From positions 344,162,001-344,226,000 of the forward strand of contig OZ024743.1 of the NCBI GenBank assembly GCA_964016885.1: a DNA stretch of 64,000 nucleotides, written 5' to 3'. Below the pieces are notes generated by a model. It made no database searches. It had not been told where the DNA came from and was given only the letters and a program-made list of their open reading frames with translations. This document shows positions 3,319 to 38,999 of the stretch, in pieces. Numbering within the stretch: position 1 is the stretch's first letter; the number at the start of each line of letters is the position of its first letter. Made by a program: the position numbers and the translations under genes. The DNA comes from Eledone cirrhosa. Taxonomy: Eukaryota.

Positions 3319-4006
3319 TATATATATGTCTCTGTGGTGCAGTGTGTGTGTATGCTAATGTAATGCGACGGTGTTGTCTGGCGATGTGTGCGCTTATTTG
3401 TGATGCATTGTGTGTGATTGTGTGTTTGTATATATATATGTATGTATGTTGTAAATGGTATGTGATGCGAGTGTGTATGTGTGTGTGCGTGTGTGTATAT
3501 ATACCTGTGTGTATATATATATGTGTTCTGTGTGTGTGTGTGTGTGCGTGTGCGTGTGTGTGTGCGTCTGTGTATGTGCAAGTGATGCTATCTGTGTGTG
3601 TCGATATATGTGTTGCATTGTTACTACGTGTATGTGTATGTACCTTTCTGTGCTTGCTGTACTATATGTGTACGTTTAATCTATTGAACCATTGCTTGCG
3701 CGTTCGTATATGTGTATATCTGTCTATTGTGCTGCTATGCCTGTGTGATGCTGTCGGTATGGTGTTGTGTATTATGTGTTGCTCTATTTAGTTATGTGTA
3801 GGTATGTACTATATGTTGTTGCATATATAATCTGCTATGAATGTATCTCATTTTGTCTATATATCAGCGTAACACTCTGTTTGTGTATGTGTGTGTATAC
3901 GTGTGTATACGTGTGTGTGTGCGTGTGAGTGTGTATGTATTCTTTCTTACGCTTTCTTCATCAACTTCATCTATACTTATTTGATTCTTTTGAGTATATA
4001 TATTGA

Positions 4007-4198
<192 letters not shown>

Positions 4199-4999
4199 TA
4201 TATTAATTACACACGCATACACGAACACACACATATATGTATGCATACATACATGTATGTATGCATTGATGTATGTATGTATGTATGTATGTATGTATGT
4301 ATGTATGTATGTATGTATGTATACATATATATGCTTATATATGTGTTTATAAATACTTTATAAATACACACATACACATATATAGATATATACATATATA
4401 CATATAAACATATATACATATATATAATTGAAATTTTCCGTTGTATCTTATTTGCAGTATTTTGGAGATAATAAGGGGGTATAATTGACATCATGGCATT
4501 ATTACCTCCCCTTTCTGTCACCCCTACCTCTTGTATCTTCTTCCGTTCTGCTTCTTCTCCCCTTCCTCTTCCTACCCCTTTCTTTCTTCTTGATTTTGTG
4601 GATGTTGTTGATGTCATTGCAATCAGTAGACAATAGACTAAATAATCTTATTGATGATAAGACTATCGGCACCACTACTACTACTACTGCTATTATCACC
4701 ACTACCACTGTCACTCACACCCCCACTACCTTTACTAGCACCACCTACGCCACCACTACTATAATCAGCATAATCCCCACCATGCCACCTTCACCATTAA
4801 CCATACACTAACACTATCATCACCATCACCACCATCACCACCACCACTATATCACAGTCATTATCCTCACCACCACCAACCCCTGTGAATACCAACACTA
4901 CCACAACTCCCTATCACTATCATTCCCTCTACTCCCTGTCATAATTTTATTCTTCCGCAACAGTACCAACAACACCAACAACATCAACAACACCCCTAT

Positions 5000-5848: not shown

Positions 5849-5945
<97 letters not shown>

Positions 5946-6327
5946 AAAATCTAGCTGTCGTCTGTTCTACAGTGTGGATGTCATTCACTTCGCACAGAAG
6001 TTTTGTTCAAATTTATTGAGGAAATTTTGTGAGTTCAAACTTAATTTTGATACAATTGTGTAGCTTGACCCTTCGTCTGAACTGTCAGGCGGTGGGTCAG
6101 CTCATCTTTACCCCTCCTAGAGGTGAAAAACCTGTTTTAAAAAATTTTGTGTAAAAAATTTCAATCGTCTAACAGAAATGTTAAACGCAGCGAACGAAAA
6201 TAGTGGTGGGGGGACAGCGGTAAGAGTTGTAAGCTCGCACGCTTTAGTCCCCCTTCCTTCCCAACTAACGTCATAGAGAAGGCAGGAAAAATTAAAATAA
6301 AAACAGACGAATCTGCGGAGAAAAAAA

Positions 6328-8076
6328 ATGACGAAAACACAAATCTGGACATGGATTCCAACAACGAAAAAAAAAAAATTTGAAAAATTGCATGACAATA
6401 CTAATAACACAAACAAAGACACAACAAACACAAAAATAACATTTGAAAATAACACCATATCAGAAAGCAAAGCAGACGACAAGATTTCATTTGCACAGAA
6501 AACAAAGAAATCTTTGACTTATATAGCGGAAAACATTTCAGATGTGGCACGAAGGATCACGGACGCCAAACAATACATAAGTGAAGGAGAGAATGGTATT
6601 TTATCGGTAAATATGCCTCAAGAATTCACCAAAGACACTGAAAGCCGAACGGTCAAGTTTCGGACCATCAACAACAGTACAAAAAAACCTGAACAGCCTT
6701 CCCAAGCAGATATCAAAACAGTACTCACAGAAGTACTTAATGAAACCACTTTCATAAGAAAAGACAGACTGTATGGAAGCCTAGCAATTATCATGAAGAA
6801 CGAATCGGCGGCAAAAAAATGTGCTTTGTCACCGATTCGTTCGAAAAATTTCACCTTTTATCCATCTTATATGGGGAAAAGAACTCAACGCATATGGCTG
6901 GATGCAATGATGCCAGATGTGGACTACTGCTGGCTCATAGCTGGCTTCATCGATCCAGCGAATGACAACGTGATTTCCATTGGGAAAACCACAGGCAATG
7001 CGTTCAGTGGAACAGGTATAGAGCTGGTAGTGCAAATGAAGCCTGAACGCATCGCCCAAATACCCGACAGAATCCTATTAGAGGACCACGGGTATATAAA
7101 CATTAGCGTGGAGGGGAGAAGGCCGTCCTGCCATATCTGTGCAGGCAGAGGGCACCTGAAGGCCGCTTGTCCCCAACTCAACAAAAAGAAAACCCTGCTA
7201 CCAACACCAGCTCCACCACCACCACCACAACAGATAAACAAACAACAAAACTCAGTCCCACCCAACCCGTCCCTCAGTAAAACCACAACACCACCACAAC
7301 ACAAACAGTCACAACACATTACCCCAAAACAAAATACAGGCCCACCCAACCTCTCACTCAATAAAACAACACAACCACCGCAGACACAACACACAACACA
7401 GTCTAACATAGTGACATCCATCTCCCCCACAAAGAAAACCAACACGGAAACATTACCAGCAAACATACCTCTTCCCTCCAACACTGAAGATAACCCAACG
7501 AATTCGGAGGAAGAAACGGAGTCCTTCAGACAGATTAAAAGGAAAAAAAGAAAACATGTGCAAAACACACAAGGCCAAACAACCCCCACCCAAATCTCAA
7601 CACAATCCAACAAAACAGAAAACACCCCTCCAGCAACAAACAAAACCAAACCTGCCCCTCCCCTCTTCGAAACACTCACACCATCCGAAAAAAAGACATT
7701 ACACTATACTTACATCAACAGAAACAATAATAAATTAAATGAACTCATATACAATAATCCTTCGGTACAAACCGAAGGTGTAAACTTTGTTTCGTCAGAA
7801 AACTACCCACATTTAAAACTAATAAAGATCCCAATGAACCTCTACCAAAAACTAAAAAAGGATTTTAAGGAGGACGTAGGACCACCCTCTGTCAAACCCA
7901 TAAACCGCGTCCTACTAAAAAGCTTTCCCCCTCCCCTTCCCCTCCCCAACACAACTCCAAACACCCCAACCCCACCACACACTGACGACCCCACACCACC
8001 ACAAGACACCCCTTCACCCAACACCCCCGACCCCATGGAAGTCGTGCAACCCGAACCCCGGGAAGTGGAAAGGTAG
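6328..8076 (+). CDS. Tx1-A ORF1 nucleic-acid-binding protein (582 aa)
   Basis: CCHC knuckle CHICAGRGHLKAAC, Pro/Thr-rich linker, basic KRKKRK patch; ends 33 nt before ORF2. Confidence 0.88.
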   Translation: MTKTQIWTWIPTTKKKKFEKLHDNTNNTNKDTTNTKITFENNTISESKADDKISFAQKTKKSLTYIAENISDVARRITDAKQYISEGENGILSVNMPQEFTKDTESRTVKFRTINNSTKKPEQPSQADIKTVLTEVLNETTFIRKDRLYGSLAIIMKNESAAKKCALSPIRSKNFTFYPSYMGKRTQRIWLDAMMPDVDYCWLIAGFIDPANDNVISIGKTTGNAFSGTGIELVVQMKPERIAQIPDRILLEDHGYINISVEGRRPSCHICAGRGHLKAACPQLNKKKTLLPTPAPPPPPQQINKQQNSVPPNPSLSKTTTPPQHKQSQHITPKQNTGPPNLSLNKTTQPPQTQHTTQSNIVTSISPTKKTNTETLPANIPLPSNTEDNPTNSEEETESFRQIKRKKRKHVQNTQGQTTPTQISTQSNKTENTPPATNKTKPAPPLFETLTPSEKKTLHYTYINRNNNKLNELIYNNPSVQTEGVNFVSSENYPHLKLIKIPMNLYQKLKKDFKEDVGPPSVKPINRVLLKSFPPPLPLPNTTPNTPTPPHTDDPTPPQDTPSPNTPDPMEVVQPEPREVER

Positions 8077-8109
8077 GTCTCTACACTCTCCTTTGGCTCT
8101 GCCGCCCAC

Positions 8110-11100
8110 ATGGATGTGTTAAGAGTAGGATGTTTGAATGCACGTGGCCTGGGCTCAACTTGGAAGCAAGCAAAGCTTCTAAATGACCTCAGGTCATGTA
8201 GTATAAACGTAATGGTTATCTGTGAGACTCGAATCAGCGTCGTGCGGCAGCTGGCCCCCACCTTCGATGACTTTGAGGTGCATGCATCTCTCTGTCAAGC
8301 TGGAGGTGGGGGTGGCGTTGTCGTACTGCTGCAAAAACACTTGGGTCTTGCCGTACAGGTTGTGCACTCGGACCCGGAGGGTCGTTTGTTGGTGCTAGAC
8401 GTTGGCAGTAGTGAAAGTGCGGCCTTGAGACTGGTCGCCGTCTACTCCCCTTTCGGAGCTGAACGGCCCGACTTCTTCCAGCGTTTGGAGACTTTTCTGG
8501 GAACGTCGCGTTCCCTACTTCTAGCGGGGGATTGGAATGACATCCTAGATGCACGTTGGGACTATGCAGGAGCATGTCCTAATAGAGGGGGGTGTAACAG
8601 CCTCAAGGGGTTACTCGACCGTTTTAACTTGGTCGATAGATATCGACTAGATTTTCCAACTGTGCCTACCTGGACTTGGAGAAACCACAGTGGTCAATCT
8701 AGATCGTACTTAGATAGATTCTTAGTTAGAAGTAAGGATAGGGACATATTAAGCTGTCCAGAAATGCGCACGGTTGGCTACACGGATCACAAATTAGTGA
8801 CCTGCGTGGTCAATCTCGAGAAAACACATAGACAGGGTCCCGGTTACTGGAAACTTAATTTGTCTTTACCGGCAAAAGAGACTTACAGAAACCGGATTAG
8901 CAGATTAGTTAAGGAGAGGTTGACGGGTGCAATCGTCAACAACCGATGGTGGGCATCTCTCAAAAGAGAGATTAGAACAGAATCAATAAGTTATAGCAAG
9001 ATGTTAGCTGCCGATAGGAATAGAAACGAGAAAGAATTAACAGATAAATTAGAAGAGGCAATCAAGAGCGAAGATGTGGCCAGAGTGCTGGCATCGAGGA
9101 CGGCCTTGAACCAGTTTTTCGATGCAAAGCACGAAGGCTGCGTCATTCGAAGTAAAATACGTGCTCTAGGTAATGAGGGGGCCAAAGCCGTTGGATGGGC
9201 CCGCGTGACAGAAGCTAAGAGTGGAAATCGATCCACCATCCGGTCGTTGCAAGACGAAGATGGACGGGTGATCCGGGAGTCTAAGCAGATGTGCGAGGCC
9301 TTTCAAAGGCACTTTGCCCGATTGTTCGGGGGAGGGGAGGGTCCGGGCGGGGGCGTGGATTTCGGTACATACCTCGACGGCCTGCCGCGTCTCTCGAGTG
9401 AAGAGGCAGAGTCCTGCGAGGGACCAATCTCGGCTGATGAGATCGGAGATGCGCTGAGCCAATGCAGCAGACGCAAATCTCCAGGTCTCGATGGTATACC
9501 TTACAAACTTTATTTAGCAATGCCGGTCTTCTTCTCCGAACTCCTCGAAGCGGTCTACTGCAATTGGCAGCAGAACGGGAGAATTCCTTGTTCTGTAGCC
9601 AAGGGCGTAGTCACGCTGGTGAGGAAGGACAAGAACAAGGGGGATAGTATAAATCATTTTCGGCCCATAACCCTGCTAAACACAGAGTTAAAGATTTTGG
9701 CCAAGGTGTTAGCAAAGAGGTTGGCGCTTGTCGTGGGTGGCCTGGTGGGAGATGCGCAGACATGTGCTATCCCATCCAGGTCCATTCACGATAACCTCCA
9801 CCTCATGCGATACATCATAGAGAGGGTTGGCAACAAACCCGGCTTCGGTGGGGCCCTGATCAACTTGGATCAGTCTAAGGCCTTCGATAGGGTCGACCAT
9901 GGTTACCTGGATGCGGTGCTAGCGGCGGCTGGGTTCGTTCCTGTTTTCAGAGGCTGGATAACTGCCTTACATAGCAACCACATCTGTTCTAGGATCAAGG
10001 TGAACGGCTACCTTTCGAAGCCGTTCGAAATCACACGATCCATTCGACAGGGGTGCCCTCTCTCCTCCCTTCTGTACGTATTGACTCTCGAGCCTTTACT
10101 GAGGAAGTTGGAGTTGTTGCAGGGTATCCCCCTGGAACCAGGATTGAGCAAAGCGGTGTCGGCCTACGCCGATGACGTAACAGTAATGGTATCGACCGAC
10201 TCGGAGATCGAGGCGATCGGTACCTTACTGGAGGAGTACGAAAGGTTGTCAGGAGCGAAACTGAACCGGGAAAAATCCATCGGGCTGCAACTCGGAACGT
10301 GGAGAGGCAGACCGATGCCTCCTGACGGTGTCGTCGGACACTGGACGGAGGGCCCGGTAAAGTTGCTTGGGGTCTGGTTTGGACCGGACCTCCAGGTGGA
10401 AAAGAACTGGAACGAGGTTACGAACAAGGTGTTTGCACTAACCCAGAAATGGGCCAAGTGTAAGCTGTCCCTAAAAGGCCGGGCGGAGGTGGCGAACATT
10501 TACATAGCGTCCGTCACTTACTACCGCCTGACTGTCGTGCCTTGCCCTAAGGAAACACTCACCACCATGGAACGCATGCTCTTCCAATTTCTTTGGAAGA
10601 AGCGCCCTCCTATGGTGAGAAGATCCATCTGCTGCCAACAACCTTCGAAAGGAGGGCTGGGGATGCCGTGGTTGATGATGCGTAGGCACGCATTAAGGCT
10701 ACGGCACCTACAGGTATTCCTCACTGGTCAACCGGTGTGGGCTCCGTTCGTGAAACGAGCCTTTCCGAGACTCGTCTCGCTCACCGAGCTACAGTCCTGG
10801 GTCAAGCAAAGATCCGGAAAACTGGGAGACTGGCACACTGAGTGTGCTCAGGCACTCAGGGCTCTCTGGCAAGCGGGCCGGGCCATCGGTGGAGAATCCA
10901 CCTCATCATTCTATAGAGGGCTGGTGGCTAGCAGGGGCGATGACACCCTTGGAGAGTCGCTGGACATGGAAGAAGACGAACTGGCCAGCCTGTTCGGTAG
11001 GACTTTCGGCCCAGGACCAATGGACAACTTCCAGAAGTCACTGGCCTGGCAGTGCTACCGGGGGGCTCTACCCGTTCGAGAGAGGCTCTACAGACACGGG

Positions 11101-11547
11101 CGCCCTGGCAGGGATCCCTCAAAAAAGATTTGCCCTAGATGCGTGCGTCACGAAGAAACCGTTGCGCACGCATTGGTGCAATGTCCGGGCGTGGCTGATC
11201 TGTGGGGCTACGCCGAACGACTGCTGTCGCGGGTGGCGCCGATTAAATTGACCGCCGAGTCCGTGATGACAATCAAACCGCCTCCCCTCTTCACAAAGGA
11301 AGCAAAGGCGGTTTTTCTGTGCGTAATAGCCATGTTGAAAGAGGTTGTTTGGTGGACACGATTGAAAGGTCTGAGGTCAGGCAACTTCCTCTCTGGCCAT
11401 AGTCTGGTCTACTTCTTCCGATATCACTTCGGAAGAAGGATAAGAATGGAGAGAGAGGTGCTTGGCCACAGGCAGTTTTATGAAAGGTGGGTGATAGTGG
11501 CGAGAATGGCTCGTGTAAATGGGCCTTCTCTGTATACCATCCTGTAG
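8110..11547 (+). CDS. Tx1-A ORF2: APE endonuclease + reverse transcriptase + C-terminal zinc-binding domain (1145 aa, uninterrupted)
   Basis: APE motifs LNARGL, ETR, VYSP, GDWN, YLDR, TDH, GPGYWKLN; RT motifs SPGLDG, FRPITLLN, KAFDRV, RQGCPLS, YADD, KLLGV; CPRC..ETVAHALVQC. Confidence 0.96.
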   Translation: MDVLRVGCLNARGLGSTWKQAKLLNDLRSCSINVMVICETRISVVRQLAPTFDDFEVHASLCQAGGGGGVVVLLQKHLGLAVQVVHSDPEGRLLVLDVGSSESAALRLVAVYSPFGAERPDFFQRLETFLGTSRSLLLAGDWNDILDARWDYAGACPNRGGCNSLKGLLDRFNLVDRYRLDFPTVPTWTWRNHSGQSRSYLDRFLVRSKDRDILSCPEMRTVGYTDHKLVTCVVNLEKTHRQGPGYWKLNLSLPAKETYRNRISRLVKERLTGAIVNNRWWASLKREIRTESISYSKMLAADRNRNEKELTDKLEEAIKSEDVARVLASRTALNQFFDAKHEGCVIRSKIRALGNEGAKAVGWARVTEAKSGNRSTIRSLQDEDGRVIRESKQMCEAFQRHFARLFGGGEGPGGGVDFGTYLDGLPRLSSEEAESCEGPISADEIGDALSQCSRRKSPGLDGIPYKLYLAMPVFFSELLEAVYCNWQQNGRIPCSVAKGVVTLVRKDKNKGDSINHFRPITLLNTELKILAKVLAKRLALVVGGLVGDAQTCAIPSRSIHDNLHLMRYIIERVGNKPGFGGALINLDQSKAFDRVDHGYLDAVLAAAGFVPVFRGWITALHSNHICSRIKVNGYLSKPFEITRSIRQGCPLSSLLYVLTLEPLLRKLELLQGIPLEPGLSKAVSAYADDVTVMVSTDSEIEAIGTLLEEYERLSGAKLNREKSIGLQLGTWRGRPMPPDGVVGHWTEGPVKLLGVWFGPDLQVEKNWNEVTNKVFALTQKWAKCKLSLKGRAEVANIYIASVTYYRLTVVPCPKETLTTMERMLFQFLWKKRPPMVRRSICCQQPSKGGLGMPWLMMRRHALRLRHLQVFLTGQPVWAPFVKRAFPRLVSLTELQSWVKQRSGKLGDWHTECAQALRALWQAGRAIGGESTSSFYRGLVASRGDDTLGESLDMEEDELASLFGRTFGPGPMDNFQKSLAWQCYRGALPVRERLYRHGRPGRDPSKKICPRCVRHEETVAHALVQCPGVADLWGYAERLLSRVAPIKLTAESVMTIKPPPLFTKEAKAVFLCVIAMLKEVVWWTRLKGLRSGNFLSGHSLVYFFRYHFGRRIRMEREVLGHRQFYERWVIVARMARVNGPSLYTIL

Positions 11548-11761
11548 GTAAAGAAGTAAAGGAGAGGGGAGCACCTTCTCCGTGTGCTCCCCGGGCAAAG
11601 GATTGCACACTTTTTCGGGGGTGTGTGCAACCCCCATCACGTCCCCTCCCTTTTGAGGTTATTTTCGATTGTTTTCATGTTACACCCTTTTTACTCGATT
11701 ATATGTAAACTCCCCCTTTGTATTTGTCCCTTCTTTTTATGCCTTTATGGTAAATAAAAAA

Positions 11762-11798
<37 letters not shown>

Positions 11799-11801
11799 AA
11801 G

Positions 11802-13170
11802 GACTGGAACGAGGTGACGACCAAGGTGTTTGCGCTCACACAGAAGTGGGCCGAGTGCAAATTATCCTTGAAAGGTCGAGCGGAGGTGGCGAACCCTTTT
11901 ATAGCGTCCGTCATCTACTACCGCTTGACCGTCGTGCCTTGTCCAGTCAAAACGCTCGCCAAAATGGAGCGCGCGCTCTTCCAATTCCTTTGGAAGAGGC
12001 GGGCTCCTTTGGTGAGAAGATCCATCTGCTGCCAACACCCTTCCAACGGAGGGCTGGGGATGCCGTGGCTGACGATGCGCAAACACGCGCTCAGGCTGCG
12101 GCATCTCTACGTATTCCTCACCGGACAACCGGTTCGTGAGGCGAGCATTGCCACGACTCGTCTCGCTGACCGAGCTGCAGTCCTGGGTCAAGCAACGACC
12201 GAGGAAAATGGGCGACTGGCACATCTAATGTGCTCAGGCGCTCACAGCCCTCTGGCAGGCGGACCCGGCGATCAGTGGAGACTCCACTTCGTCATTCTAT
12301 AGAGGGTTGATCCGCAGCAAGTGCGACGACGCTCTCGGAGAAACTCTAGGCGTAGAGGAAGATGAACTGCCCAGTCTGTTCGGTAGGACCTTCCGCCCGG
12401 GACCGATGGACAACTTCCAAACGTCCCTGGCCTGCAGTGCTACCGAGGAGCTCTACCAGTTCGAGACAAGCTCTACAAACATGGACACCCGGACAGGGAC
12501 CCTTCGAAAAAGATCTGTCCAAGATGCGTGCGAGACGAAGAAACCGTCGCACACGCATTCATACACTGCCCGGGCGTTACCGACTTGTGGGGCTATGTAG
12601 AACGACTATTGTCGCGGGTGGGACCAATCCAGTTGACCACCGAGTCCATTGTCATAATCAAACCGCCGCCCTCCTTCAAAAACGAAGGAGAGCCGGTTTT
12701 CCTTTGTGTGATAGCTATGGCGAAAGAAGTTGGATGGTGGACGAGGTTAAAAGGGCTGAGATCAGACACCTTTCTCTCCGGCCAACAACTGATACTTTTT
12801 TTTCAAATACCACTTTGGAAGAAGAATCAGGATGGAGAGAGATGTGCTGTACCCCAGCAAGTTTTATGAAAGGTGGGTGAAAGTGGCGAGAATGGCCCGA
12901 GTGAATGGGCCTTCTCTCTATATTAGCCTGTAGGTTGAGGAAAAAAAGGAAGAGAGGAAAGGGGTACAAACTCTTCGTACTCCTGGAGATGAGGGTTGCA
13001 CATTTTTTCGGGGGTATGTGTTACCCATATGAAATGTCTCCCCCTATTGGGGAAAATCGATTAATTTTTAAATTACAATTGTGATAGCATTTTACACGTT
13101 TTTATTGTATGTAAACTTCCGCCTTTGTATTTTTCCCCTTCTTTTGTGCCCCTGTGGCTAATAAAGAAAC
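11802..13170 (+). mobile_element. 5'-truncated, frameshifted second Tx1-A-type copy with 20-bp target-site duplication
   Basis: ORF pieces 11814-12302, 12307-12600 and 12528-12869 match the ORF2 C-terminus; ATCTATCTATCTATCTTAAG occurs at both 11782-11801 and 13171-13190. Confidence 0.92.
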
Positions 13171-13512
13171 ATCTATCTATCTATCTTAAGATGCCATATT
13201 GTATTCATGTAATTATATTCAGGTAATTTTTATATCCCTTGCTTAGAGATGTTATGTGTACGTGTATTTATTCAAAACATTTCCTTCTTGTCAACAAGCA
13301 AGTAATCACGAGAACAATCTATTATTTTCCAACGTAATTTTATGTGATTATAAAAATTAAGGGCTTGGACCATACAAATACAACACTTTCCTATGGACTT
13401 GCAACAAGGAGACAATGTAATACACTGCGCTACATTCCACAAAACAAAATACATAGAAAGGAAAATATAAATAGACAATGCATCCATGTTTTATACAATT
13501 CCCCACAACAAT

Positions 13513-22391: not shown

Positions 22392-22888
22392 AATATATGC
22401 AAATAACATTTCCAGACGATGTCTACTATTTGGTATATGCGTATGAGCATCTCTAGCAAATGATCATCACGCAAGATGTTATCTACATAGACAATAGTCT
22501 ATTTCATGCCACTACTGTTTTGAGTGGGTCTCACAAATGATAGAGATTAGGAAATCTTGAAACAACGTTGCATGACATTCTCGAAATGTACTGGCACCTT
22601 TGTAATTTATCCACAGAAGAAAATAGAAAAAAATAAATTTATTATGAACCAGGATGTTGTGAATTAGTTCTGAGAAGGAAAGCCAAATAATTATCTTCGG
22701 CAGTGCGGCTACTCATATGTTTTTTCTATACAAACGTATTACATGTGTTCATGTTTTCATATACAACTCTATTAAGCTTGCACGCTGTCTTAGTGCTACC
22801 GCCAATTAAAAAAATATATTTATGCATGTATGTATATATATAATATATATATGTATATATATATATATGTATATATATATTATATATA

Positions 22889-22955
22889 TTTATTAAAATA
22901 ACAGATTAAAGTTTAAGCAAAGAATCACTGCTTTCTCCCTTAACGGGGTTTTCAA
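22889..22955 (-). mobile_element. Fragment of a (TA)n-associated short repeat family (also 33024-33068, 33091-33310, 38690-38852)
   Basis: TTTATTAAAATAACAGATTAAAGTTTAAGCAAAGAATC.CTGCTTTC.CCCTTAACGGG recurs at these sites. Confidence 0.75.
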
Positions 22956-22958
22956 ATA

Positions 22959-23425
22959 CGGCGAATCCCTAATTAACTTTTTCAAGTTTCACTTGAAGAG
23001 GAAAATCAGGGTGGAGAGGCAAGTGCTGCCTTCTAGCAAGTTTGTTGAAAGGTGGATGAATGTAGCGAGAATGGTCCGAGTGAACGGGGCCGCTCTGAAT
23101 ATATGTCTGTAGTTTGAGAGATGGAAAAATTGAGAGAGGGCGCTTGCCCTGGTGGTCAGGGTGGCCGTGGTCTTTTGTGTGGTTTTCGCCACGAGTAACC
23201 CTCGGAGGTTTCCCCCCTATTGGAGAATTTTTCATTGTTTCAATTTTCATTTTTATTGTTTATATATATATATGTTTCTATGTCTTTTTTTTCTTTTCTT
23301 ATATAAATAATAAAAATCTTTACACGCACAAAACCCACATCGTACTGCCCTGTACCATCCTGTACCGTCCTGTGCCGTCTGTAATGTTTTTCTTGATGTC
23401 AGCCCTTGTGGCCAATAAAGAAATC
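22959..23425 (+). mobile_element. 3' fragment of an (ATT)n-associated Tx1 family (Tx1-B type)
   Basis: Encodes ..LINFFKFHLKRKIRVERQVL..RMVRVNG as in the Tx1-B C-terminus; ends GCCCTTGTGGCCAATAAAGAAATC followed by (ATT)n. Confidence 0.88.
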
Positions 23426-23453
23426 ATTATTATATATTATTATTATTATTATT

Positions 23454-24861
23454 GTTCTTTGAATCTCAGTCATTGATGTTATTTAACTGGAAAGTTTGTT
23501 GAAATGAATATCAAGCCACTACCTGCAGCCTCAGATATTCAGGACGTATCGGAGGGTTCTTGCTGTTCCCAGCAAGCATGCCTTTTGAAGTGTTCCAAAA
23601 AGCGATGCGGGACCAATTTTCTTTAACCATCCCTGGAAACTCTTTGAGAGAGTACCTAGTGCGCCTATGACAATTGGGACCACTTTGACTTCATGGCAGT
23701 TCCAAATCCTTTTTACCTCCCACTTTAAGTCCTGGTATCGGTTAATTTTCTCCCTCTCCTTCTCTTCCACTCTCGTGTCGAATGGGCAGGCTACATCCAC
23801 AATCAGGCACGATCTTTTTTCCTTGTTCAAAACCACCAGGTCAGGCCTATTGTGTTCCAGTTTCTTGTCCGTCTGTATCCTAAAATCCCACAGCACCTTC
23901 ACCTGATCGTTTTCTATCACCGACTCTGGTTTATGCTCATACCACTTCTCAGAACGTAGTAAATTATTTACTTTGCATAGGTGCCAGTGGATCATGCCTC
24001 CACATGACATCATGTCTCCAGCCTTTATAGTGAGTCTGGGCTAGGTGTTTACACTCGGATACAATGTAAGCCACAGTCTCCTCTCTCCACAGATCCTACA
24101 CAGTGGGATAGCCTCCCCCTTGGAAATATGGTGTTTCAGCCACTTCGAGGGCCTGCTCTTGCGCAGCCATTAGCATTCCTTCTGTACCCTTTTTAAGGCC
24201 TCCTCTTTTCAACCAGTTCCATGTCTGTGGATCTCTAAATTCAGTTTTCTCAAAGAAGGTACTATGAAGGGATTTTTCATGAAGGTTGCTCTTTCTCCTT
24301 GTTATTTCCTCCTTGGACATCGCCTAGTTTATTGTCCTCTCCTTCAGTACAATTTTGAGCATCGGCTCCCTACTATCAGTCACGTATTTGTGTAGGTTGT
24401 TTTTCTCCATCTGAACACAGTCCTCTATGCTGATAAGACCTCTTCCACCTTCAGATCTCCTTAAGTAGAGTCTATCGACATCACTCCTCTTGTGGAACAT
24501 GTTGTAGATAGTCAATAGCTTCCTAGTCTTCCTATCCATTTCTTTTTGTTCAGCAACATTCCATCTCAGAATTCCCGCACTGTACCTAATAATAGACACA
24601 GCTCGGGAATTTACTGCACTTATGGCATTCCTACTGTTCAGATGTGATTTTAATACGCTCCTTACTCCCCGAATGTATTCAGATCTTATCAATTCCTTCA
24701 TTTTTTTTGTTCTTGATGTCATCAGCTTCCAGAACATCTAAATATTTGTATCCTTCTTCAGTGTCAATTTCCTTTATCATCTCACCTGCTGGTACCTGGA
24801 TTCCGTTGCTTCTGCTCAATTTACCTCTCTTCATCACAAGGACTCCACACTTACTAATACC
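23454..24861 (-). mobile_element. 5'-truncated R4/Dong-like RLE non-LTR retrotransposon, copy 1 (frameshifted)
   Basis: ORF pieces 24679-24897, 24324-24737 and 23531-24013 with YKYL, GGRGL, AAQEQAL, HNRPDLVV, IVDVACPFD, PIVIGALG, LQKACLLGT; (AAT)n on both sides. Confidence 0.9.
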
Positions 24862-24877
24862 TATTATTATTATTATT

Positions 24878-24969
24878 GTTCTTTGAGTCTCAGTCATTGA
24901 TATTGGTTAACTGGAAAGTCTGTTGAAATGAATATCACGCCACTACCTGCAGCCTCAGATATTCAGGAC
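24878..24969 (-). mobile_element. R4/Dong-like copy 2, ~90-bp 3' end only
   Basis: Matches the 3' ends of copies 1 and 3; flanked by (TAT)n. Confidence 0.85.
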
Positions 24970-24993
24970 TTATATTATTATTATTATTATTAT

Positions 24994-25093
24994 AACCGAG
25001 GTTAACTTTGCCTTTCATCCTTACGGGGTCGATAAAATAGAGTACCAGTAATACACTGGGATAATTGCTGGCCATGTGCCAAATGTAGAAACA
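24994..25093 (+). mobile_element. 5'-truncated SINE family A within (ATT)n
   Basis: CCGAGGTTAACTTTGCCTTTCATCC..AGAAACAATTATT. Confidence 0.85.
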
Positions 25094-25115
25094 ATTATTA
25101 TTATTATTATTATTA

Positions 25116-27103
25116 TTTTTCTTTGAGTCTCAGTCATTGATGTTATTTAACTGGAAAGTTTGTTGAAATGAATATCAAGCCACTACCTGCAGCCTCAGAT
25201 ATTCAGGCGTATCGGAGGGTTCTTGCTGTTGCCAGCAAGCATGCCTTTTGAAGCGTTCCAAAAAGCGTGGCGGGGCCAATTTTCTTTAACCATCCCTGGA
25301 AACTCTTTGAGATAGTACCTAGTGCGCCTATGACAATCGGGACCACTTTGACTTCATGGCAGTTCCAAATCCTTTTTACCTCCCACTTTAAGTCCTGGTA
25401 TCGGTTAATTTTCTCCCTCTCCTTCTCTTGCACTCTCGTGTCGAATGGGCAGGCCACATCCACAATCAAGTACGATCTTTTTTCCTTGTCTAAAACCACC
25501 AGGTCAGGTCTATTGTGTTCCAGTTTCTTGTCCGTCTGTATCCTAAAATCCCACAGCACCTTCACCTGATCGTTTTCTATCACCGCCTCTGGCTTATGCT
25601 CATACCACTTCTCAGAATGTGGTAAATTGTATACTTTGCATAGGTGCCAGTGGATCACCCTGCCCATCACATCATGTCTCCAGCCCTTATAGTGAGTCTG
25701 GGCTAGGTGTTTACACTCGGATACATTGTGAGCCACAGTCTCCTCTCTCTCACCACAGATCCTGCACAGTGGGATAGCCTCCTCCTTGTAAATATGGTGT
25801 TTCAACCACTACGTTTTGAGGGCCTGCTCTTGCGCAACCATTAACATTCCTTCTGTAGCCTTTTTAAGGTCTCCTCTTTTCAACCAGTTCCATGTCTTTG
25901 GATATCTGAATTCAGTTTTCTCAAAGAAGGTACTATGAAGGGATTTTTCATGAAGGCTGCTCTTTCTCCTTGTTGTTATTTCCTCCTTGGACATTCCCTG
26001 GTCTATTGTCCTCTCCTTCAGTACAATTTTGAGCATTGGCTCCTTACTATCGGTCACGTATTTGTGTAGGTTGTTTTTCTCCATCTGAACACAGTCCTCT
26101 ATGCTGATAAGACCTCTTCCACCTTCAGATCTCCTTAAGTAGAGTCTATCGACATCACTCCTCTTGTGGAACATGTTGTAGCTAGTCAATAGCTTCCTAG
26201 TCTTCCTATCCATTTCTTTTTGTTCAGCAACATTCCATCTCAGAATTCCCGCACTGTACCTAATAATAGACACAGCTCGGGAATTTACTGCACTTATGGC
26301 ATTCCTACTGTTCAGATGTGACTTTAATACGCTCCTTATTCTCCGAATGTATTCAGATCTTATCAATTCCTTCATTTTTTGTTCTTGATGTCATCAGCCT
26401 CCAGAACACCTAAATATTTGTATCCTTCTTCAGTGTCAATTTCCTTTATCATCTCACCTGTTGGTACATGGATTCCGTTGCTTCTGCTCAATTTACCTCT
26501 CTTCATCACAAGGACTCCACACTTACTAATACCAAATTGCATACACATATCATTGCTGAAAATACTGACAGTGTCAACAAGCCCATCCAACTCCCTCTCA
26601 CTCTTCCCGAAGAGCTTAAGATCGTCCATGAAGAGGAGGTGATTGATGGTAAGCTCTCCCTTTCCCAACTTGTATCTTGCTCTCACTTTTCGCAGTATAA
26701 TGGTCAGGGGCATCAGGGCAAGGACAAACAACAGAGGGGACATACTATCTCCCTGGAAGAAACCTCTCTTGATCTTTACGCCTCCCAAGGATTCTCCAGC
26801 TGATGTTAACTCTGTTTTCCAGGACTTCATACTTTTGCCCAACAACTGTCTGATGTTATCTGCCACCTTGAAGATCTCTAGGCTTTTGGTGATCCAAGAA
26901 TGAGGCACCATGTAAAATGCCTTTTTGTAGTCTATCCATCCCATGGCAAGACCAGTGTGACTCCTCTTGCAATTCCTCATTACCATCTTATCAATAAGTA
27001 ACTGGTCCTTTGTACCACGGGACTTCTTTCGGCATCCTTTTTGTTCGTCCGGTAACAAGTTATTTGTGTGGAGGTGATGGTAGATTTCCTCAGACATAAT
27101 GCA
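25116..27103 (-). mobile_element. R4/Dong-like RLE non-LTR retrotransposon, copy 3 (5'-truncated, one frameshift and one stop)
   Basis: RT ([32 protein letters not shown]) at 26372-27097; 25809-26375; zinc knuckle CRIC..ETVAH...C, RHD and PD-(D/E)xK-type nuclease at 25203-25805. Confidence 0.93.
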
Positions 27104-27104
27104 A

Positions 27105-27150
<46 letters not shown>

Positions 27151-27366
27151 GGCGACCTACGTAGTAAATCGTATCATCGTGAGATCCGCAAAGGTTTGTT
27201 ATTTTCAGTTGTTTAAAATTGCCATTTATGGAACATTTTTATTGTTAACTGTATATAAGTTTACAAACATTGATTTCTGAAAAGGACACTCAAAAATATT
27301 GGGGCCTTGAGCCCAAAATTTAAACTTTTTATAATTATCAAACAAAACAAACTTCTTTGAAAAATC

Positions 27367-29276
27367 ATGGACGGCTCAGAGTCACTCCTTCCTCACACAC
27401 TAACACCTCACACCGACACCACCATTGTAAATATTACTACGTTTGCCAACACTAAAAATATAAGCAGTAGCAATATTTTAAATTTGTCTCAGCCAGACAT
27501 TCATTTCCCGCCATTACCAATGACTGCAGGTGTTAAAGCCCCCCCCCCCACCACCACCACAACGACAATAGAAACAAAAGAAAAAAATAAATTAACTTGT
27601 GATATCGAAATGAATTTAACCAAAATGAACTCTTCCACACCGAACACCACTGACGCCACCACCACCACAACTGAAACTAAAATAAACAATAACGAAAATA
27701 ACGATAAGAACAACAGCAACAATGAAATTAAGAAAACTACCCTGAGTTTTGCCAGAGTAGCAAAAACGTGCGAAGCGATCCAGGTAACTCAGGAGGAATT
27801 AGATGAAGCCAAAAGAATGGTAAAGAAAGATGGGTACAGGGTCAGCCTCACCCCACCACCTAATAAAATAGAGCATCGTCGCCTATGCACCGTGTCTTAT
27901 CGGACAATTAACATAAAATCGCGCCGGGCATCCAAGTCCCAAATCCAAAAAGCTTTGGGACATGTGTGGGCAAAAAAAACACACATCAGACGTGGGCAGA
28001 AATATGGAACTGTGGACGTGTTCTTTGAAACACCACAGGAGGCCAGAGAACACTCCATGGCCCCATTAAGAAGTGACGACTTCACACTCGTCCCAAGCTA
28101 TTGTGGCCAGAGACTTGTGAAGATCAGGGTGACCCACGTTCCACCAGCCATCGAAATTCCCTGGCTAATGGCTGCCGTCCTCGCCGGCATCGAGGCCAAC
28201 ACCAAGATAATCGAAATAGCGAAAGAAAAGCAGGAGAACTGGTCCGGATCTGGGATCGAGCTCCTGATCCAAGCGGACCATAAAAGCATTGAGGAGATCC
28301 CAGAGGTAATAGACCTCACTGAAGGCAGACACCGCACCGTAATCGTCGAGGGCAGAAGGCCTAGGTGTGTCGTTTGTGGTGAAGGAACCCACCTAAGGGC
28401 TTTCTGCCCTCAGGCTAAAAGGTTGAGGCCACCTCTCTTACCCACCCCAGTGACTCAACCATCAACACCACCAGCAGCAGAAATGGCAGCAACAACTGTA
28501 GCAGCAACAACAGAAGCAACTGTAACAGCAACAACCCCAGCAACAGTAGCAAAACCAACACCCACACCACCCAACGCGCCAGAACTGGCACCAGCGCCTA
28601 CACCATCCACCACGCCACAACCAAAACCAACGCCTGCGGAGGATTTTCCACTCCCCGGCTTATCGCAACTGGAGACAGATTGTGACGACGTGGAGTGGGA
28701 AACGGTATCAGGAAAAAAGAAAAAAAGAAACCAAAAAAGAAAAATTCTCTTCTTTCCCCCTCCAAAAACAAAATACAGAGGGAAACAAATAAATTATCAA
28801 ACAAAAAAGTTAGGACAGATATGCCTCCATCCACACAAGCATCACCAACCCCATCATCACAAACACCAACACCATCACCATCATTAACCCCAACACCACC
28901 ATCACCAACACCACAAAAGTCACCAAAAAGCGAAACAGAAACAAAACAAAACAAAACGCAAACAAAACAAAACAACCAAAACGATACACACTACACAGCA
29001 TTAAATTTGAACAACAACCAATTATTACACTACATGCAACACAACACCAGCATCACAGAAAAAGACTATACAACAACACAAAAGTTCACACCACCTCCAC
29101 ACATACAAATCACTCGCATCACACAGAAAACGTACACGACACTAAAACAAAAATTCCCCAAAGACATCGGAGACTTCCGACAAACACTCTCCAGGAGGAT
29201 TTATAAGGACATCCTTCCGGAGGAGGCCACAAGCAGTGAAAAGGATGGAAAACCATCCTTCCTCTACGAGAAGTAA
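27367..29276 (+). pseudogene. Tx1-B ORF1, frameshifted near 28740
   Basis: CCHC knuckle VEGRRPRCVVCGEGTHLRAFC; continuation 28695-29276 resembles the Tx1-A ORF1 C-terminus (HYT.LN.NNN.L..., LKQKF.KD.G). Confidence 0.85.
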
Positions 29277-29315
29277 GGTAAGTGGTCTTTCCCATCTTTT
29301 CCACTCCATTTCAAC

Positions 29316-32300
29316 ATGACCTCACTCAGAATAGGCAGCATAAATGCGCGTGGCTTGAGGTCGTCACGGAAGCAGGGCCACCTGCTCAACGACCTCAGGT
29401 CACTAAACATAGATGTAGTGGCCATCAGCGAGACCAGAATCTCCGAAGCACGGGCCCTCGCACCGATCTTCGGCGGCTATGATGTGTACGCATCTCCCAG
29501 CCGTCCGGGTTCGGGGGGAGGAGTTGTTGTGCTTTTTCGGAGAGGTTTGGATCTCCCCATACGGGCCATCTTCCTGGACCCAGAAGGTAAGTTGGTGGTG
29601 CTAGATGTGACCAGCGGAGACGGGCAAGCTTTCAGGCTAGTGGCCGTCTATGCCCCGACAGGAGCAGGGCGGCCTGATTTCTTCCGGCGTCTGGAGACCT
29701 TTCTTGGAACGTCCCGCTCTTTAGCGTTAGTGGGCGACTGGAACGGGATCTTAGATGCACGCTGGGACTGTGTGGGATCAGCGGATAGGGGAGGAGGGCG
29801 CAAGAGCCTCACCAACCTGCTCAGGCGTTTTGAACTATCTGACAGGTACCGATTGGATTTCCCGAATGTGCCAATGTGGACTTGGACAAATCGCATAGGG
29901 TCATCCAGATCATATCTAGATAGAGTATTTTGTAGGGAAATAGATAGGTCTAGCATAGGCTGTCCACAATTCAAGATAGTCAGCTACACGGACCACAAAT
30001 TCGTGATCTGTGTGCTTGACTTAGATAGGCTTCATAGACGAGGACCCGGCTACTGGAAGCTAAACGCGTCCTTACCAGCGCGCAAGGCCTACAGAGACCG
30101 GATTAGCGAACTAGTTAAGCGGGCGTTGACGGGGGCCATCGTCAAAAACAAGTAGTGGTTTGCTCTGAAAAGAGCAATTAGAATAGAGTCCATTAGGTTT
30201 AGTAAGGCTTTAGCAATAGAGAAAAATAGAGCAGAAGGAGAATTAGTTAGAAAATTAGACGAGGCGCTTAGCAAAGGCATCGCGCCCGACGTACTTGCGA
30301 CGAAGTTGGCCCTTGACCAATTCTTCAATGCAAAGCACGAAGGCTGCGTTGTCAGAGCTAGGGTGCGGGCTCTCAGACACGAGGGGACGAAAGCCGTTCA
30401 ATGGGCCCGAGTGGCGGAGGCGCGTCGTGGCAACAAAGCCACGATGCGGTCTTTGGTGGACCACGACGGGCGCATGCTACTCGATCCCAGGAAAATGTGT
30501 GAAGCTTTTCTGCGACACTTCGCACAGCTGTTCGGGGGCAGCGGCGGGCCGGTTCGAGGGATGGACTTTAGTGTCTACCTCGACGGACTGCCGCGGCTCT
30601 CGGCCACTGAAGCGGAGTGTTGCGAAAACCCGATAACAGCCGCTGAAGTACGGGAGGCAATGACTGGCTGCACAAGGGGTAAATCGCCTGGTTTGGATGA
30701 TCTGCCCTATGAACTTTACTTACAGATACCAGACTTGTTCGGAGGCCTCTTGGCGGACGTCTACTGCAACAGAACGGGAGAATTCCCAGCTCTGTGAGCC
30801 GAGGAGCTGTGGTGCTGCTGAGAAAGGATCCGAACAAGTGGGATAACATAGATAATTTCAGGCCCATAACTCTGCTAAACACAGAGCTCAAGATTTTGGC
30901 CAAGGTGCTACCAAAGAGGTTGGCGGTTGTCGTTGGTGGTCTGGTGGGAGAGGCTCAGACGTGCGCCATTCCCAACAGATCCATCCACGACAACCTCCAC
31001 CTCATGCGATACATCGTAGAGAGGGTAGCTAGGGAACCTGGCACGGGTGGGTCCTTGATCAATTTAGATCAGTCGAAAGCTTTCGATAGGGTCGACCATC
31101 GTTACCTAGCGGCAGTCTTGAGGGCGGCTGGCTTTGGGCCCATCTTCAGAGGCTGGATCGCTGCCATGCACATCAACATCTGCTCTGTGGTGAGAGTGAA
31201 CGGTCACCTTTCGGAACCGTTCAACATCATGCGCTCGGTCCGCCAAGGATGTCTCCTCTCGTCCCTCTTGTACGTATTGACTCTCAAGCCATTACTGCAC
31301 AAACTGGAGACGTTGAGGGGGCTCCCGCGCGAACTAGGATGCGGAATATCCGTGTCAGCATATGCGGACGATGTCACCGTAGTGGTGTCAAACGCCAAAC
31401 ACATCGAGGCAATCGGCACTACACCAAGAGAATACGAAGCGGTGACAGGAGCAATGATCAACCAGGAAAAGTCAGTGGGCCTGCAGCTCGGCACCTGGAG
31501 AGGCAGATCCATGCCGTCCAACAGCGTCGTCGGGCGCTGGACGGACGGACCAGTTAAATTGCTCGGGGTCTGGTTCGGTCCGGATCTCCAGACGGACAAA
31601 AACTGGGACGAGGTGACGAGAAGGGTGGCTTCTCTCACCCAGAAATGGGCCGAGAGGAAGCTATCCCTGAAAGGTCGACCGGAGGTGGCTAACGCGTATA
31701 TCGCGTCCGTCATCTACTACCGCCTGACCGTCGTACCTTGTCCTAAGCCCCGCCTGACTGCGCTGGGGCGTTTGCTCTTCCGCTTTTTGTGGAAGGGACG
31801 CGCTCCGATGGTCAGGCGGTCCATCTACTGTCAACACCCGCTACGTGGAGGGCTGGGAATGCCGTGGCTGATGATGCGCAGACACGCGCTCAGGCTACGA
31901 CATCTCCACCTCTTCCTCGACGGTGATCAGGTGTGGTCTCCGTTTGTTAGACGCGTCTTTCCCCAGCTCGTCTCCTTGACGGAGCTGCAGTCCTGGGTCA
32001 AGCGAAGACCGAGGGGGAGCGCTTGGAGACTGGAATGTCTTCAGGCGCTCATAGCCCTCGACCAATCGGGCAATGTGATCGGTGGAAACTCTACCTTGGC
32101 GTTCTATAGAGGATTAGTGGAGGGGAGGAGCGACGACGTACTTGGGGAAACTCTAGGCGTCGACGAAAATCAACTAGCCAATCTCTTCGGAAGAACTTTC
32201 GGGCCGGGACCTATGGACAACTTCCAGAAATCCCTGGCCTGGCAGTGCTACCGAGGAGCTTTTCCAGTTCGGGATAAACTCTACAGGCATGGAGGTGCCG

Positions 32301-32745
32301 TCTGGCGGGCATGTCCGATATGCGCGCAGGGCGACGAAACCATCCTGCACGCACTCGTCCAGTGTCCGAGCATTGCTGACTTGTGGGTTTATGTCGAACA
32401 CCTGCTGTCGCGTGTGGGACGGATCCAGCTATCAGCTGAGTCCATCGTGAGGATTACCCCGCCCTCTTCCTTTAGCAGGCAGTTTTTATCTGTCTGGAAG
32501 GGCAGGCAGTTTTTATCTGTCTGGTGGCCATGGCGAAAGAGATAGTATGGTGGACACGTTTGAAAGGGCTGAAGACGAGCACTTACCTCTTCGGTGATGC
32601 CCTGATTAACTTTTTCAAATTTCATTTGAAAAGGAAAATCAGGGTAGAAAGGGAAGTGCTCTCTTCCCAGCATTTTGTTGAAAGATTGGTGAGAGAAGCA
32701 AGAATGGCCCGAGTGAATGGGCCTACTCTGAGCATATATCTGTAA
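29316..32745 (+). pseudogene. Tx1-B ORF2 (APE-RT-Zn), disrupted
   Basis: INARGL, GDWN, TDH, YADD, CPIC..H...C; premature TAG at 30153-30155, small deletion frameshift near 30769, short internal duplication near 32477-32525. Confidence 0.92.
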
Positions 32746-33090
32746 ATTAAAGGTGGAAAACTGGGAGAGGGCACTTGCCTTGGTGGTCAGGGTCACTGTG
32801 GCCTTTTACTGGGCTTTCTCCACAAATGTCCCTCCGAAGTCTCCCCCCTATTGGGGAATTTTTCATTGTTATTTTTTTGTTACCTACTCTGTTTTTGTTT
32901 TTTACACACAGAAATGCCCATTTGTACCGTACTGTATTGTCCTGCACTATCCTTAATGTCTACTTTATGTAAACCCTTGTGGTTAATAAAGAAATCATTA
33001 TTATTATTATTATTATTATATTATAAGAACAGTTAAAGTTTAAGCAAAGAATCGCTGCTTTCACCCTTATATATATATATATATATATAT

Positions 33091-33415
<325 letters not shown>

Positions 33416-36149: not shown

Positions 36150-36683
<534 letters not shown>

Positions 36684-37763: not shown

Positions 37764-38049
37764 TATATATATATATATTTCGTTTCTGAATTTGTTTAGC
37801 AAGATTCTTTATCTGGAATCGTGTGTTGAAACCGATATTGTTATACTTTGGGAGGGTCATGTTGCCAATAAGAAACACACGCACCAGTAGCTTTCACTTC
37901 AATTTATTATAATAAATTAATAAATTTAGGAATTTATAAATTTCTGGTTGGTTGGTTGGTTCCACAACCAGATGGTTGTTTATATATTGTCAAAGTTCTT
38001 TCGTCACACATTCTGTGACCTCTTATATAATATATATATATATATATAT

Positions 38050-38444
38050 AATATGAAAAACGAAGAATCAGTGACGCATCGAAACGCAATTTATTAACGT
38101 ATCACAATTGTTTCTCCGGCGAGCAGCTCGAGGTGCGATCTATTTGTGGATCGAACCTGACTCTGGATTCGCAAGTTCCCCAGATACGTCTAGTGACTTC
38201 GAAGCAAACTCTCTGTCCGATGTCAATAGACGTATCTGAGAAACTTGCGAATCCAGAGTCAGGTTCGATCCACAAATAGATCGCACCTCGAGCTGCTCGA
38301 CAGAGAAACAATTGTAATACGTTAATAAATTGCGTTCCGATTCATCAGTGTTTCTTCGTTTATTATATTACTATACTCTGCTCCGAAGGAGCATAGAGCG
38401 CTCAACTGGCCTACCGCCTATGGACGCATCCAAGCAACCTTACT

Positions 38445-38581: not shown

Positions 38582-38852
<271 letters not shown>

Positions 38853-38999
38853 TATATATATATATATATATCTTTTGATTTTAATTTATTAATTCTTCAT
38901 TGAGCTTAAAAGTGAACAGTTGCAACATATATATATCCTTAATTTAATTTAATTTTATGTATATGATAACCTTTATATATATATATATATATATGCATT

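Follow-up and report, generated by a model that had tools for sequence, protein, structure and literature searches.

The retrotransposons closest to those studied here are long interspersed nuclear elements (LINEs) with a preferred insertion target, and they are cited from excerpts of the respective papers. Dong elements of the R4 clade (Bombyx Dong, DongAg and the snail DongBg) are specific for TAA (PMC3812793, PMC3774820), and L1-Tx1 and Dong-R4 elements were recently active in Octopus vulgaris, where Dong-R4 families are abundant (PMC13282606, whose main text contains neither 'target' nor 'nested'). Kibi targets (TC)n and Koshi targets (TTC)n (PMC3812793), and crocodilian Tx1 families reside in (TTCC)n and (TTTC)n (PMC4494074). 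Keno, a Tx1 element with an apurinic-like endonuclease (APE), and Utopia, with a restriction-like endonuclease (RLE), use the same U2 small nuclear RNA site and evolved in parallel (PMC4640811). TRAS1 and SART1 enter telomeric (TTAGG)n in opposite directions, with an endonuclease (EN) that recognizes about 10-12 bp (PMC7265360). SINEU, a short interspersed nuclear element (SINE), is tied to Tx1-Mar by target in crocodilians (PMC4494074). Here we describe a cluster of six retroelement copies, comprising Tx1-type (APE) LINEs, Dong-type (RLE) LINEs and a SINE, at positions 22959-32996 of a 64,000-nucleotide stretch of Eledone cirrhosa DNA (contig OZ024743.1, positions 344,162,001 to 344,226,000); this whole stretch is the window.

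The Dong-type elements resemble Dong in having a reverse transcriptase (RT) followed by a CCHC finger and an RLE, in carrying TAA/AAT on their own strand at both ends, and in their molluscan host, but differ in comprising two families (Dong1, 4.9 kb, and Dong2, at least 4.2 kb) whose repeat is also occupied by APE elements. With Kibi, Koshi and the crocodilian Tx1 families the Tx1-type elements have in common a layout comprising two open reading frames (ORFs) with APE, RT and zinc finger, insertion into a microsatellite, and head-to-tail stacking (PMC4494074); unlike them, they occupy (ATT)n, with a sister branch in (TATC)n, inhabit an invertebrate and are represented by about 10,000 tails. 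As in Keno and Utopia, APE and RLE lineages converge on one target. That pair has identical 3' flanks, implying a shared orientation, and targets a low-copy gene, whereas here the polarity is opposite, the repeat is duplicated by insertion, and hundreds of co-occurrence junctions lie in one genome. As with TRAS1 and SART1, two LINE families enter one tandem repeat in opposite directions; both of those, however, have an APE-type EN and are confined to telomeres, while here one class has an RLE and the sites are dispersed. Like SINEU and Tx1-Mar, the SINE and the Tx1-type LINEs share a target, but here a 3' hairpin with covarying pairs is common to both as well, and the SINE carries putative tRNA-type boxes (A- and B-box-like words picked out by eye). 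All the ingredients have precedents. In the open-access literature, no account came to light of APE and RLE LINEs jointly occupying one dispersed microsatellite with opposite polarity on such a scale, of ATT- or TATC-targeting Tx1-type elements (Repbase entries may hold such cases), or of a Tx1-type partner for an octopod SINE. The excerpts of six further papers (PMC4758252, PMC4824008, PMC3747384, PMC9115989, PMC8967140 and PMC1950540) made no statement on an ATT target or a SINE partner.

We consider it probable that the cluster arose as independent insertions piled up one after another, made by a genome-wide guild of elements that sit in ATT repeats, with fixed opposite orientations and likely with priming on opposite strands. 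The six elements that an earlier note on this DNA had listed were all present in the claimed order and orientation, and all five internal junctions were (ATT)n, as was the right end (Table 1). The left boundary (22959) was not ATT and adjoined half of a palindrome resembling a miniature inverted-repeat transposable element (MITE). On their own strand, the window's Tx1-type LINEs and SINE had ATT, and the Dong-type LINEs had AAT. The left fragment had been taken for Tx1-B but belongs to the sister subfamily Tx1C; its identity was 79% with Tx1-B, 88% with the Tx1C copy used as reference and as high as 94% with further Tx1C copies. The Tx1-B copy described as full was full length but not intact, its ORF2 being broken by an in-frame stop (30153-30155) and a frame change (near 30713-30797).

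The three Dong pieces were about 94% identical to each other and had median identities of 94-96% to copies elsewhere; since the two values agree, the pieces are separate insertions. A local tandem duplication of the Dong pieces was ruled out, their mutual identity being equal to that to unrelated copies. All six window copies had median identities of 92-96% to other copies, so divergence gave no insertion order, and neither did shared interruptions of the runs. Junction register probably accounts for the apparent 'AT' interruptions at junctions 3 and 5. The locus is typical, as mixed arrays are common elsewhere (for example at L155, L196, L200 and L256; L-numbers denote sampled genome loci).

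Orientation was fixed per family, as the earlier note had held, and the genome-wide check, in which whole-genome counts were of exact sequence patterns, showed it to be non-random. Tx1-B heads were preceded by (ATT)3 in 2,387 cases and by TAATAA in 0. ATTATT stood before all 100 Tx1-B heads listed (of 1,768), and ATT repeats stood before all 39 other full-length heads retrieved from the 40 best matches. Among 100 listed Tx1-B-type tails (of 10,263), a few of which belong to sister subfamilies, (ATT)3 came next in 85 and AAT in none. Two or more AAT units preceded about 75 of the 100 Dong1 heads listed (of 1,465; counted by eye); many of the remaining listed heads were GAA-like, and the single ATT-looking case (L245) was the end of an AAT run. 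Tail-to-tail Tx1-B/Dong1 junctions numbered 382 genome-wide, whereas two exact patterns for same-strand junctions gave 0 and 0. In the background sample (L091-L170, 80 systematic 10-kb stretches, 800 kb), all 42 element/ATT junctions had the expected polarity, including 16/16 5' junctions. The expected polarity was also found at 371 of the 378 junctions assigned in all retrieved DNA, on 259 distinct ATT runs, and all 27 anchored Dong/Tx1 neighbour pairs were opposite.

The 5' boundaries are the most telling, because 3' repeats could be tails. Among copies with both ends in one sampled locus, Dong1 had AAT at 37/47 5' boundaries and ATT at 0/47, Dong2 had AAT at 8/10 and ATT at 0/10, and Tx1-B had ATT at 15/19 and AAT at 1/19; copies from the window and some boundaries made by deletion are counted in these sets. 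The 5' flanks of Tx1C were ATT in 0/8 cases, of which five fall at an internal gap in the copy used as reference and one at the MITE junction in the window. Such boundaries bear on the explanation that there is no active targeting, the repeats being tails expanded after insertion and the clusters a passive accumulation in neutral, repeat-rich regions. Non-LTR elements do generate microsatellites (PMC3812793, in excerpt), ATT runs were confined to 24 of the 80 background stretches, and an excess of Dong at Tx1-B 5' ends (15/39 vs 6/43 at background ATT runs, p = 0.02) may be regional. Strand-specific repeats nevertheless stood at 5' boundaries even of truncated copies, duplications show that the motif predates insertion, the two same-strand patterns found no junction, and the sister family Tx1-A occupies a different repeat. 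This explanation is already largely refuted, and we regard it as very improbable.

Two unrelated endonuclease classes had been proposed to use the same microsatellite. The sharing and the opposite polarity held, but the ATT-strand machinery reads a 6-7-nt motif, Y|ATTAT, and not the microsatellite as such. Among 110 SINEs with an intact 3' end, 44 had an exact duplication of 9-20 nt, not pure ATT, that started at the first base after the SINE. The insertion site was Y|ATTAT(T/A), with a pyrimidine at -1 in 41 of the 44, followed by A (44), T (42), T (43), A (44) and T (39). The same kind of duplication was found in four Tx1-B copies (L002, L007, L252 and L254). Deviations of the target from ATT were present in both copies of the duplication in SINEs and in the Tx1-B copies at L007, L252 and L254; since both copies share them, the 3' repeat consists of target DNA rather than of a tail copied from RNA. 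Three or more ATT units followed 4/59 background SINEs, as against (ATT)3 at 85/100 listed Tx1-B tails, and the SINE is therefore less strict than Tx1-B.

The proposal that each insertion regenerates target for others was supported for SINEs, whose duplications in Tx1 and SINE 3' junctions (L006, L026, L109, L113 and L219) record re-use of the junction; for Dong entering Tx1 junctions, the evidence was adjacency only. At least five SINE insertions lay at one nucleotide inside different Tx1-B copies and had different 5' junctions. This site, at Tx1-B position 1850 (window about 29000), is a hotspot for SINE entry, these events being spread over 4 of 20 long Tx1-B loci (L197, L207, L208 and L210).

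Junctions carried ATT in the SINE and in at least three Tx1-type subfamilies, and AAT in two Dong-type families. In target-primed reverse transcription (TPRT), the polarity of insertion implies opposite priming strands for the two classes. Given TPRT and the opposite fixed polarity, Tx1-type LINEs and the SINE would prime reverse transcription on the AAT strand and Dong-type LINEs on the ATT strand. On the AAT strand, the APE domain would nick at 5'-ATAAT^R-3', which occurs once per 3 nt of (ATT)n, and the RLE would nick the ATT strand, probably aided by pairing with Dong's encoded AAY tail. Each insertion would split one run into two, slippage would lengthen the runs, and sites would multiply near existing insertions. 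Full-length Tx1-B heads stood in a fixed ATT|GG register, which suggests that Tx1-B RNA may start in upstream ATT repeats and that the second strand may be joined by homology. The SINE would use Tx1-type proteins through the shared 3' hairpin. As to whether the strand is chosen by the endonuclease or by RNA-primer pairing, the data fix only the priming strand, and we infer opposite nicking from TPRT.

Priming could also choose both site and strand, if both ENs cut A/T-rich DNA loosely and the 3' repeats of the RNA (AUU in Tx1 and SINE, AAU in Dong) paired only with the complementary nicked strand. One Dong1 subfamily has an encoded AAY-type tail (L246, L247, L248 and L250), the single register of Tx1-B heads suggests RNA-borne repeats, and L014, L109 and L113 may show added ATT. 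In the TRAS/SART system, as excerpted, EN is the main target determinant, both EN and RNA pairing act in SART1, and RNA-target annealing raises accuracy in SART1 and R1 (PMC7265360). However, most resolved 3' copies started at the first base and kept deviations (ACTAT, AATAT, ATTGTT, ATTACT), without slipped units, and the pyrimidine at -1 (41/44) is at a position with which no tail could pair. We regard site choice by priming as unlikely.

The earlier note had named clustering no greater than expected from repeat density as grounds for refutation, and at 3' ends this was formally the case. Clustering was far above genome-wide chance: the 382 tail-to-tail junctions among 10,263 Tx1-B-type tails compare with about 0.7 expected, by rough arithmetic from 4 Dong1 3' ends in 800 kb, and Tx1 elements faced Dong tails in 9/39 cases, against a genome-wide chance of 0.0009. 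At 3' ends, however, clustering did not exceed the base rate of ATT runs. Dong followed 3/29 Tx1-B tails vs 7/43 background ATT runs (p = 0.73), and Tx1 facing Dong tails (9/39) compared with 10/43 background ATT runs (p = 1.0). This is what a shared target predicts, and the shared target explains the pile-ups. At least one guild element was touched by 30/43 background ATT runs, and two by 12/43; the density of runs is therefore itself largely tied to the guild. In the same background, (ATC/GAT)5+ runs (50) outnumbered (ATT/AAT)5+ runs (33).

The excess of Dong at Tx1-B 5' ends noted above was modest and was measured against a small background. It raises the question of whether the clades interact beyond the shared target, for example if head-to-head Dong/Tx1-B pairs were favoured or retained through promoter or chromatin context. 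Dong stood at 15/39 Tx1-B 5' ends vs 3/29 3' ends (p = 0.012, and p = 0.012 also against the length-weighted background). The two sets were drawn differently, however (full-length heads vs all tails), only 6 background runs had Dong on the left, of which a single stretch supplied 3, and no excess was seen at 3' ends. The probability that we assign to such an interaction is slight.

Tx1-A, a sister LINE of Tx1-B in the same window, served as a control for the shared target. A Tx1-A-related fragment (11798-13171) lay downstream in the same (TATC)n, and the stack spanned 5850-13186. Tx1-A is young, with 99% identity between copies. Its 3' ends were followed by (ATCT)2 or more in 22/29 cases, its duplications began at TATCT, and its 5' boundaries were TATC in 6/11 cases and ATT in 0/11. 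It stacked with its own kind, with a TATC-type neighbour in 6/29 cases and a Dong neighbour in 0/29. Dong adjoined Tx1-B in 18/68 cases vs 0/29 for Tx1-A (p = 0.001). The EN hairpin loops, compared among 18 EN copies and one frameshifted Tx1H, differ between Tx1-A (RNHSGQS) and Tx1-B (TNRIGSS). At 69% identity and with different targets (TATC vs ATT), the two form a natural test pair for the question of what selects the site, the endonuclease or the RNA.

In Tx1-B, ORF2 (29277-32545) contained the Pfam domains Exo_endo_phos (APE), RVT_1 and zf-RVT. Its ORF1 starts at about 27361, has a CCHC knuckle (C-x2-C-x4-H-x4-C, in 27361-28884) and is likely frameshifted. The closest solved structures were L1 EN, which the Tx1-B EN resembled most, and ORF2p. 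The traits of the Tx1 clade were present, namely an N-terminal APE, an RT, a C-terminal zinc finger, a separate CCHC ORF1 and a target preference. No match named Tx1 was found among the 120 listed protein matches of Tx1-A or in the atlas, and the best named protein match of Tx1-A was from Argonauta hians (67%).

Clustering of the flanks of ATT runs gave three Tx1-type tails (B, C and H), three heads, the SINE and Dong2, and one of the three heads came with a different ORF1 and an ORF2 like that of Tx1-B. Elements with head 'h3' (L128 and L173) had a Tx1-B-like ORF2 (96-97%) with a different 5' untranslated region and ORF1 and kept the ATT target; the 5' module is therefore not the target determinant. 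Head 'h4' (L204) kept the ATT target with a different 5' module, its ORF2 lying outside the sequence covered. The 3' end of a further family, Tx1D (window 44332-45714), was followed by AAT and then by an opposite-strand SINE, and Tx1D-related ends at L107 and L126 were followed by ATATA-like DNA; Tx1D may have a third target. Tx1-B tails were densely grouped at about 37.10-37.20 Mb (7 in about 92 kb) and 11.27-11.30 Mb (4 in about 21 kb) of G000:C1, which suggests arrays much longer than that of the window.

The SINE is abundant (about 80 3' ends per 800 kb), and an Rfam search with it gave no meaningful match. Aligned without gaps, its last 25 nt matched the ends of Tx1C and Tx1D at 16 positions and those of Tx1-B and Tx1-A at 14, compared with 8/25 and 5/25 for the Dong ends; the background frequency of at least 16/25 matches was 1.7e-4. 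The shared 3' part comprises a 4-bp stem and a 5-nt loop, 12 nt from the end, and the predicted 3' hairpin of the window's SINE was in register with that of the Tx1-type LINEs. In an alignment of 11 rows, from which Tx1H was left out for its spacer being 1 nt longer, 91% of cells were paired and 3/4 pairs were compensatory; 0/500 shuffles scored as high, and the value was above all slid controls. The SINE and Tx1-B were also alike in target motif, polarity and duplication pattern. From these sequence comparisons, Tx1-type LINEs are likely the carrier of the SINE through the shared 3' hairpin.

In Dong1, RT, CCHC finger and a PD-(D/E)xK restriction-like endonuclease followed one another in one ORF, without an APE. 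The window copy at 25118-27104 matched Pfam RVT_1 (E = 7.7e-19), its other motifs being read from the translation. Dong2 is a second RLE family with a 1,038-aa ORF (L188:2471-6801, and L155), and its closest solved structures were R2 proteins only. No named Dong or R4 was found among the 120 listed protein matches. Unique target duplications were rarely resolvable for Dong. Dong2 showed the same AAT polarity as Dong1, and its 5' end resembled that of Dong1; a conserved 5' RNA structure may exist in the two families. Bombyx Dong self-cleaves at its 5' junction by a ribozyme like that of hepatitis delta virus (PMC3774820, in excerpt); a general Rfam search, with no dedicated fold, gave no ribozyme family at E<=1 in the Dong 5' ends of L177 and L155. 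Some Dong1 copies had (AAG)n rather than (AAT)n flanks (L198, and among the listed heads), and Dong1 specificity may be relaxed.

Several observations weigh against our explanation. Seven of the 378 assigned junctions had the other polarity: two came from one ATT run inside Dong1, one was an inverted Dong piece, one a weak low-complexity match, two were SINEs, and one was the AAT after another Tx1-type family, at window 45703. An exact duplication of at least 9 nt outside pure ATT was lacking in 66/110 SINEs, and the 3' ATTATT of L014 had no match on the 5' side. RNA-primer pairing without copying would leave identical duplications. The Tx1-A control at 3' ends alone gave 3/29 vs 0/29 (p = 0.24), and the EN tree of the 18 copies was too poorly resolved to link target with EN. 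The Tx1 and Dong labels rest on architecture and behaviour and not on a tree with named references. For the SINE partner, the hairpin has only 4 bp, single-sequence folds were mostly non-significant (5/6 with z above -1.1), one SINE folded differently, the 11 alignment rows were chosen by hand, and the SINE end was as close to the TATC-targeting Tx1-A as to Tx1-B (14/25 each).

A wider reading, which we hold tentatively and at slightly less than even confidence, is that a radiation of octopod Tx1-type elements retuned its endonuclease to short repeats (ATT, TATC and others), and that the ATT branch, driving one of the genome's most abundant SINEs through the covarying hairpin, forms with the two Dong-type families on the opposite strand a guild that seeds itself and by which most (ATT)n microsatellites of the genome are made and maintained. 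Such a guild would bear on the origin of ATT microsatellites and of repeat hotspots in octopod genomes, and on the use of ATT microsatellites as markers.

Table 1. Features of the retroelement cluster and of the control element in the window (window coordinates).
Feature	Position	Strand	Remarks
Half of palindromic MITE-like element	22871-22953		Left neighbour of cluster, non-ATT boundary; self-BLAST matches to 33077-33225 and 38673-38756
Tx1-type LINE, 3' fragment	22959-23425	+	Sister subfamily Tx1C; predicted 3' hairpin 23401-23413
Junction 1	23426-23453		(ATT)n with one interruption; tail-to-tail Tx1C/Dong1
Dong-type RLE LINE, 5'-truncated	23454-24861	-	Family Dong1; equals 3507-4921 of 4.9-kb natural full-length copy
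Junction 2	24862-24877		(ATT)5
Dong1 3' stub	24878-24972	-	95 bp
Junction 3	24973-24995		(ATT)6-7
SINE, 5'-truncated	24996-25093	+	87-182 of 184-nt copy; predicted 3' hairpin 25069-25081
Junction 4	25094-25117		(ATT)8
Dong1, 5'-truncated	25118-27104	-	RT, thumb, CCHC finger, RHD and PD..D restriction-like endonuclease motifs; stops present
Junction 5	27105-27150		(ATT)15; Dong1 5' boundary faces Tx1-B head
Tx1-type APE LINE Tx1-B, full length	27151-32996	+	5,846 bp; predicted 3' hairpin 32972-32984
Terminal (ATT)n run	32997-33024		Followed by MITE-like sequence
Sister LINE Tx1-A (control)	5946-11764	+	Set in (TATC)n; 69% to Tx1-B; open 1,156-aa ORF2

The palindromic MITE-like family had 47 matches in 800 kb, and pieces of it flanked the cluster (22871-22953, 33077-33225 and 38673-38871). 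Further palindromes lay in the window at 36150-36683, 38045-38375, 55594-56078 and 61776-63175.

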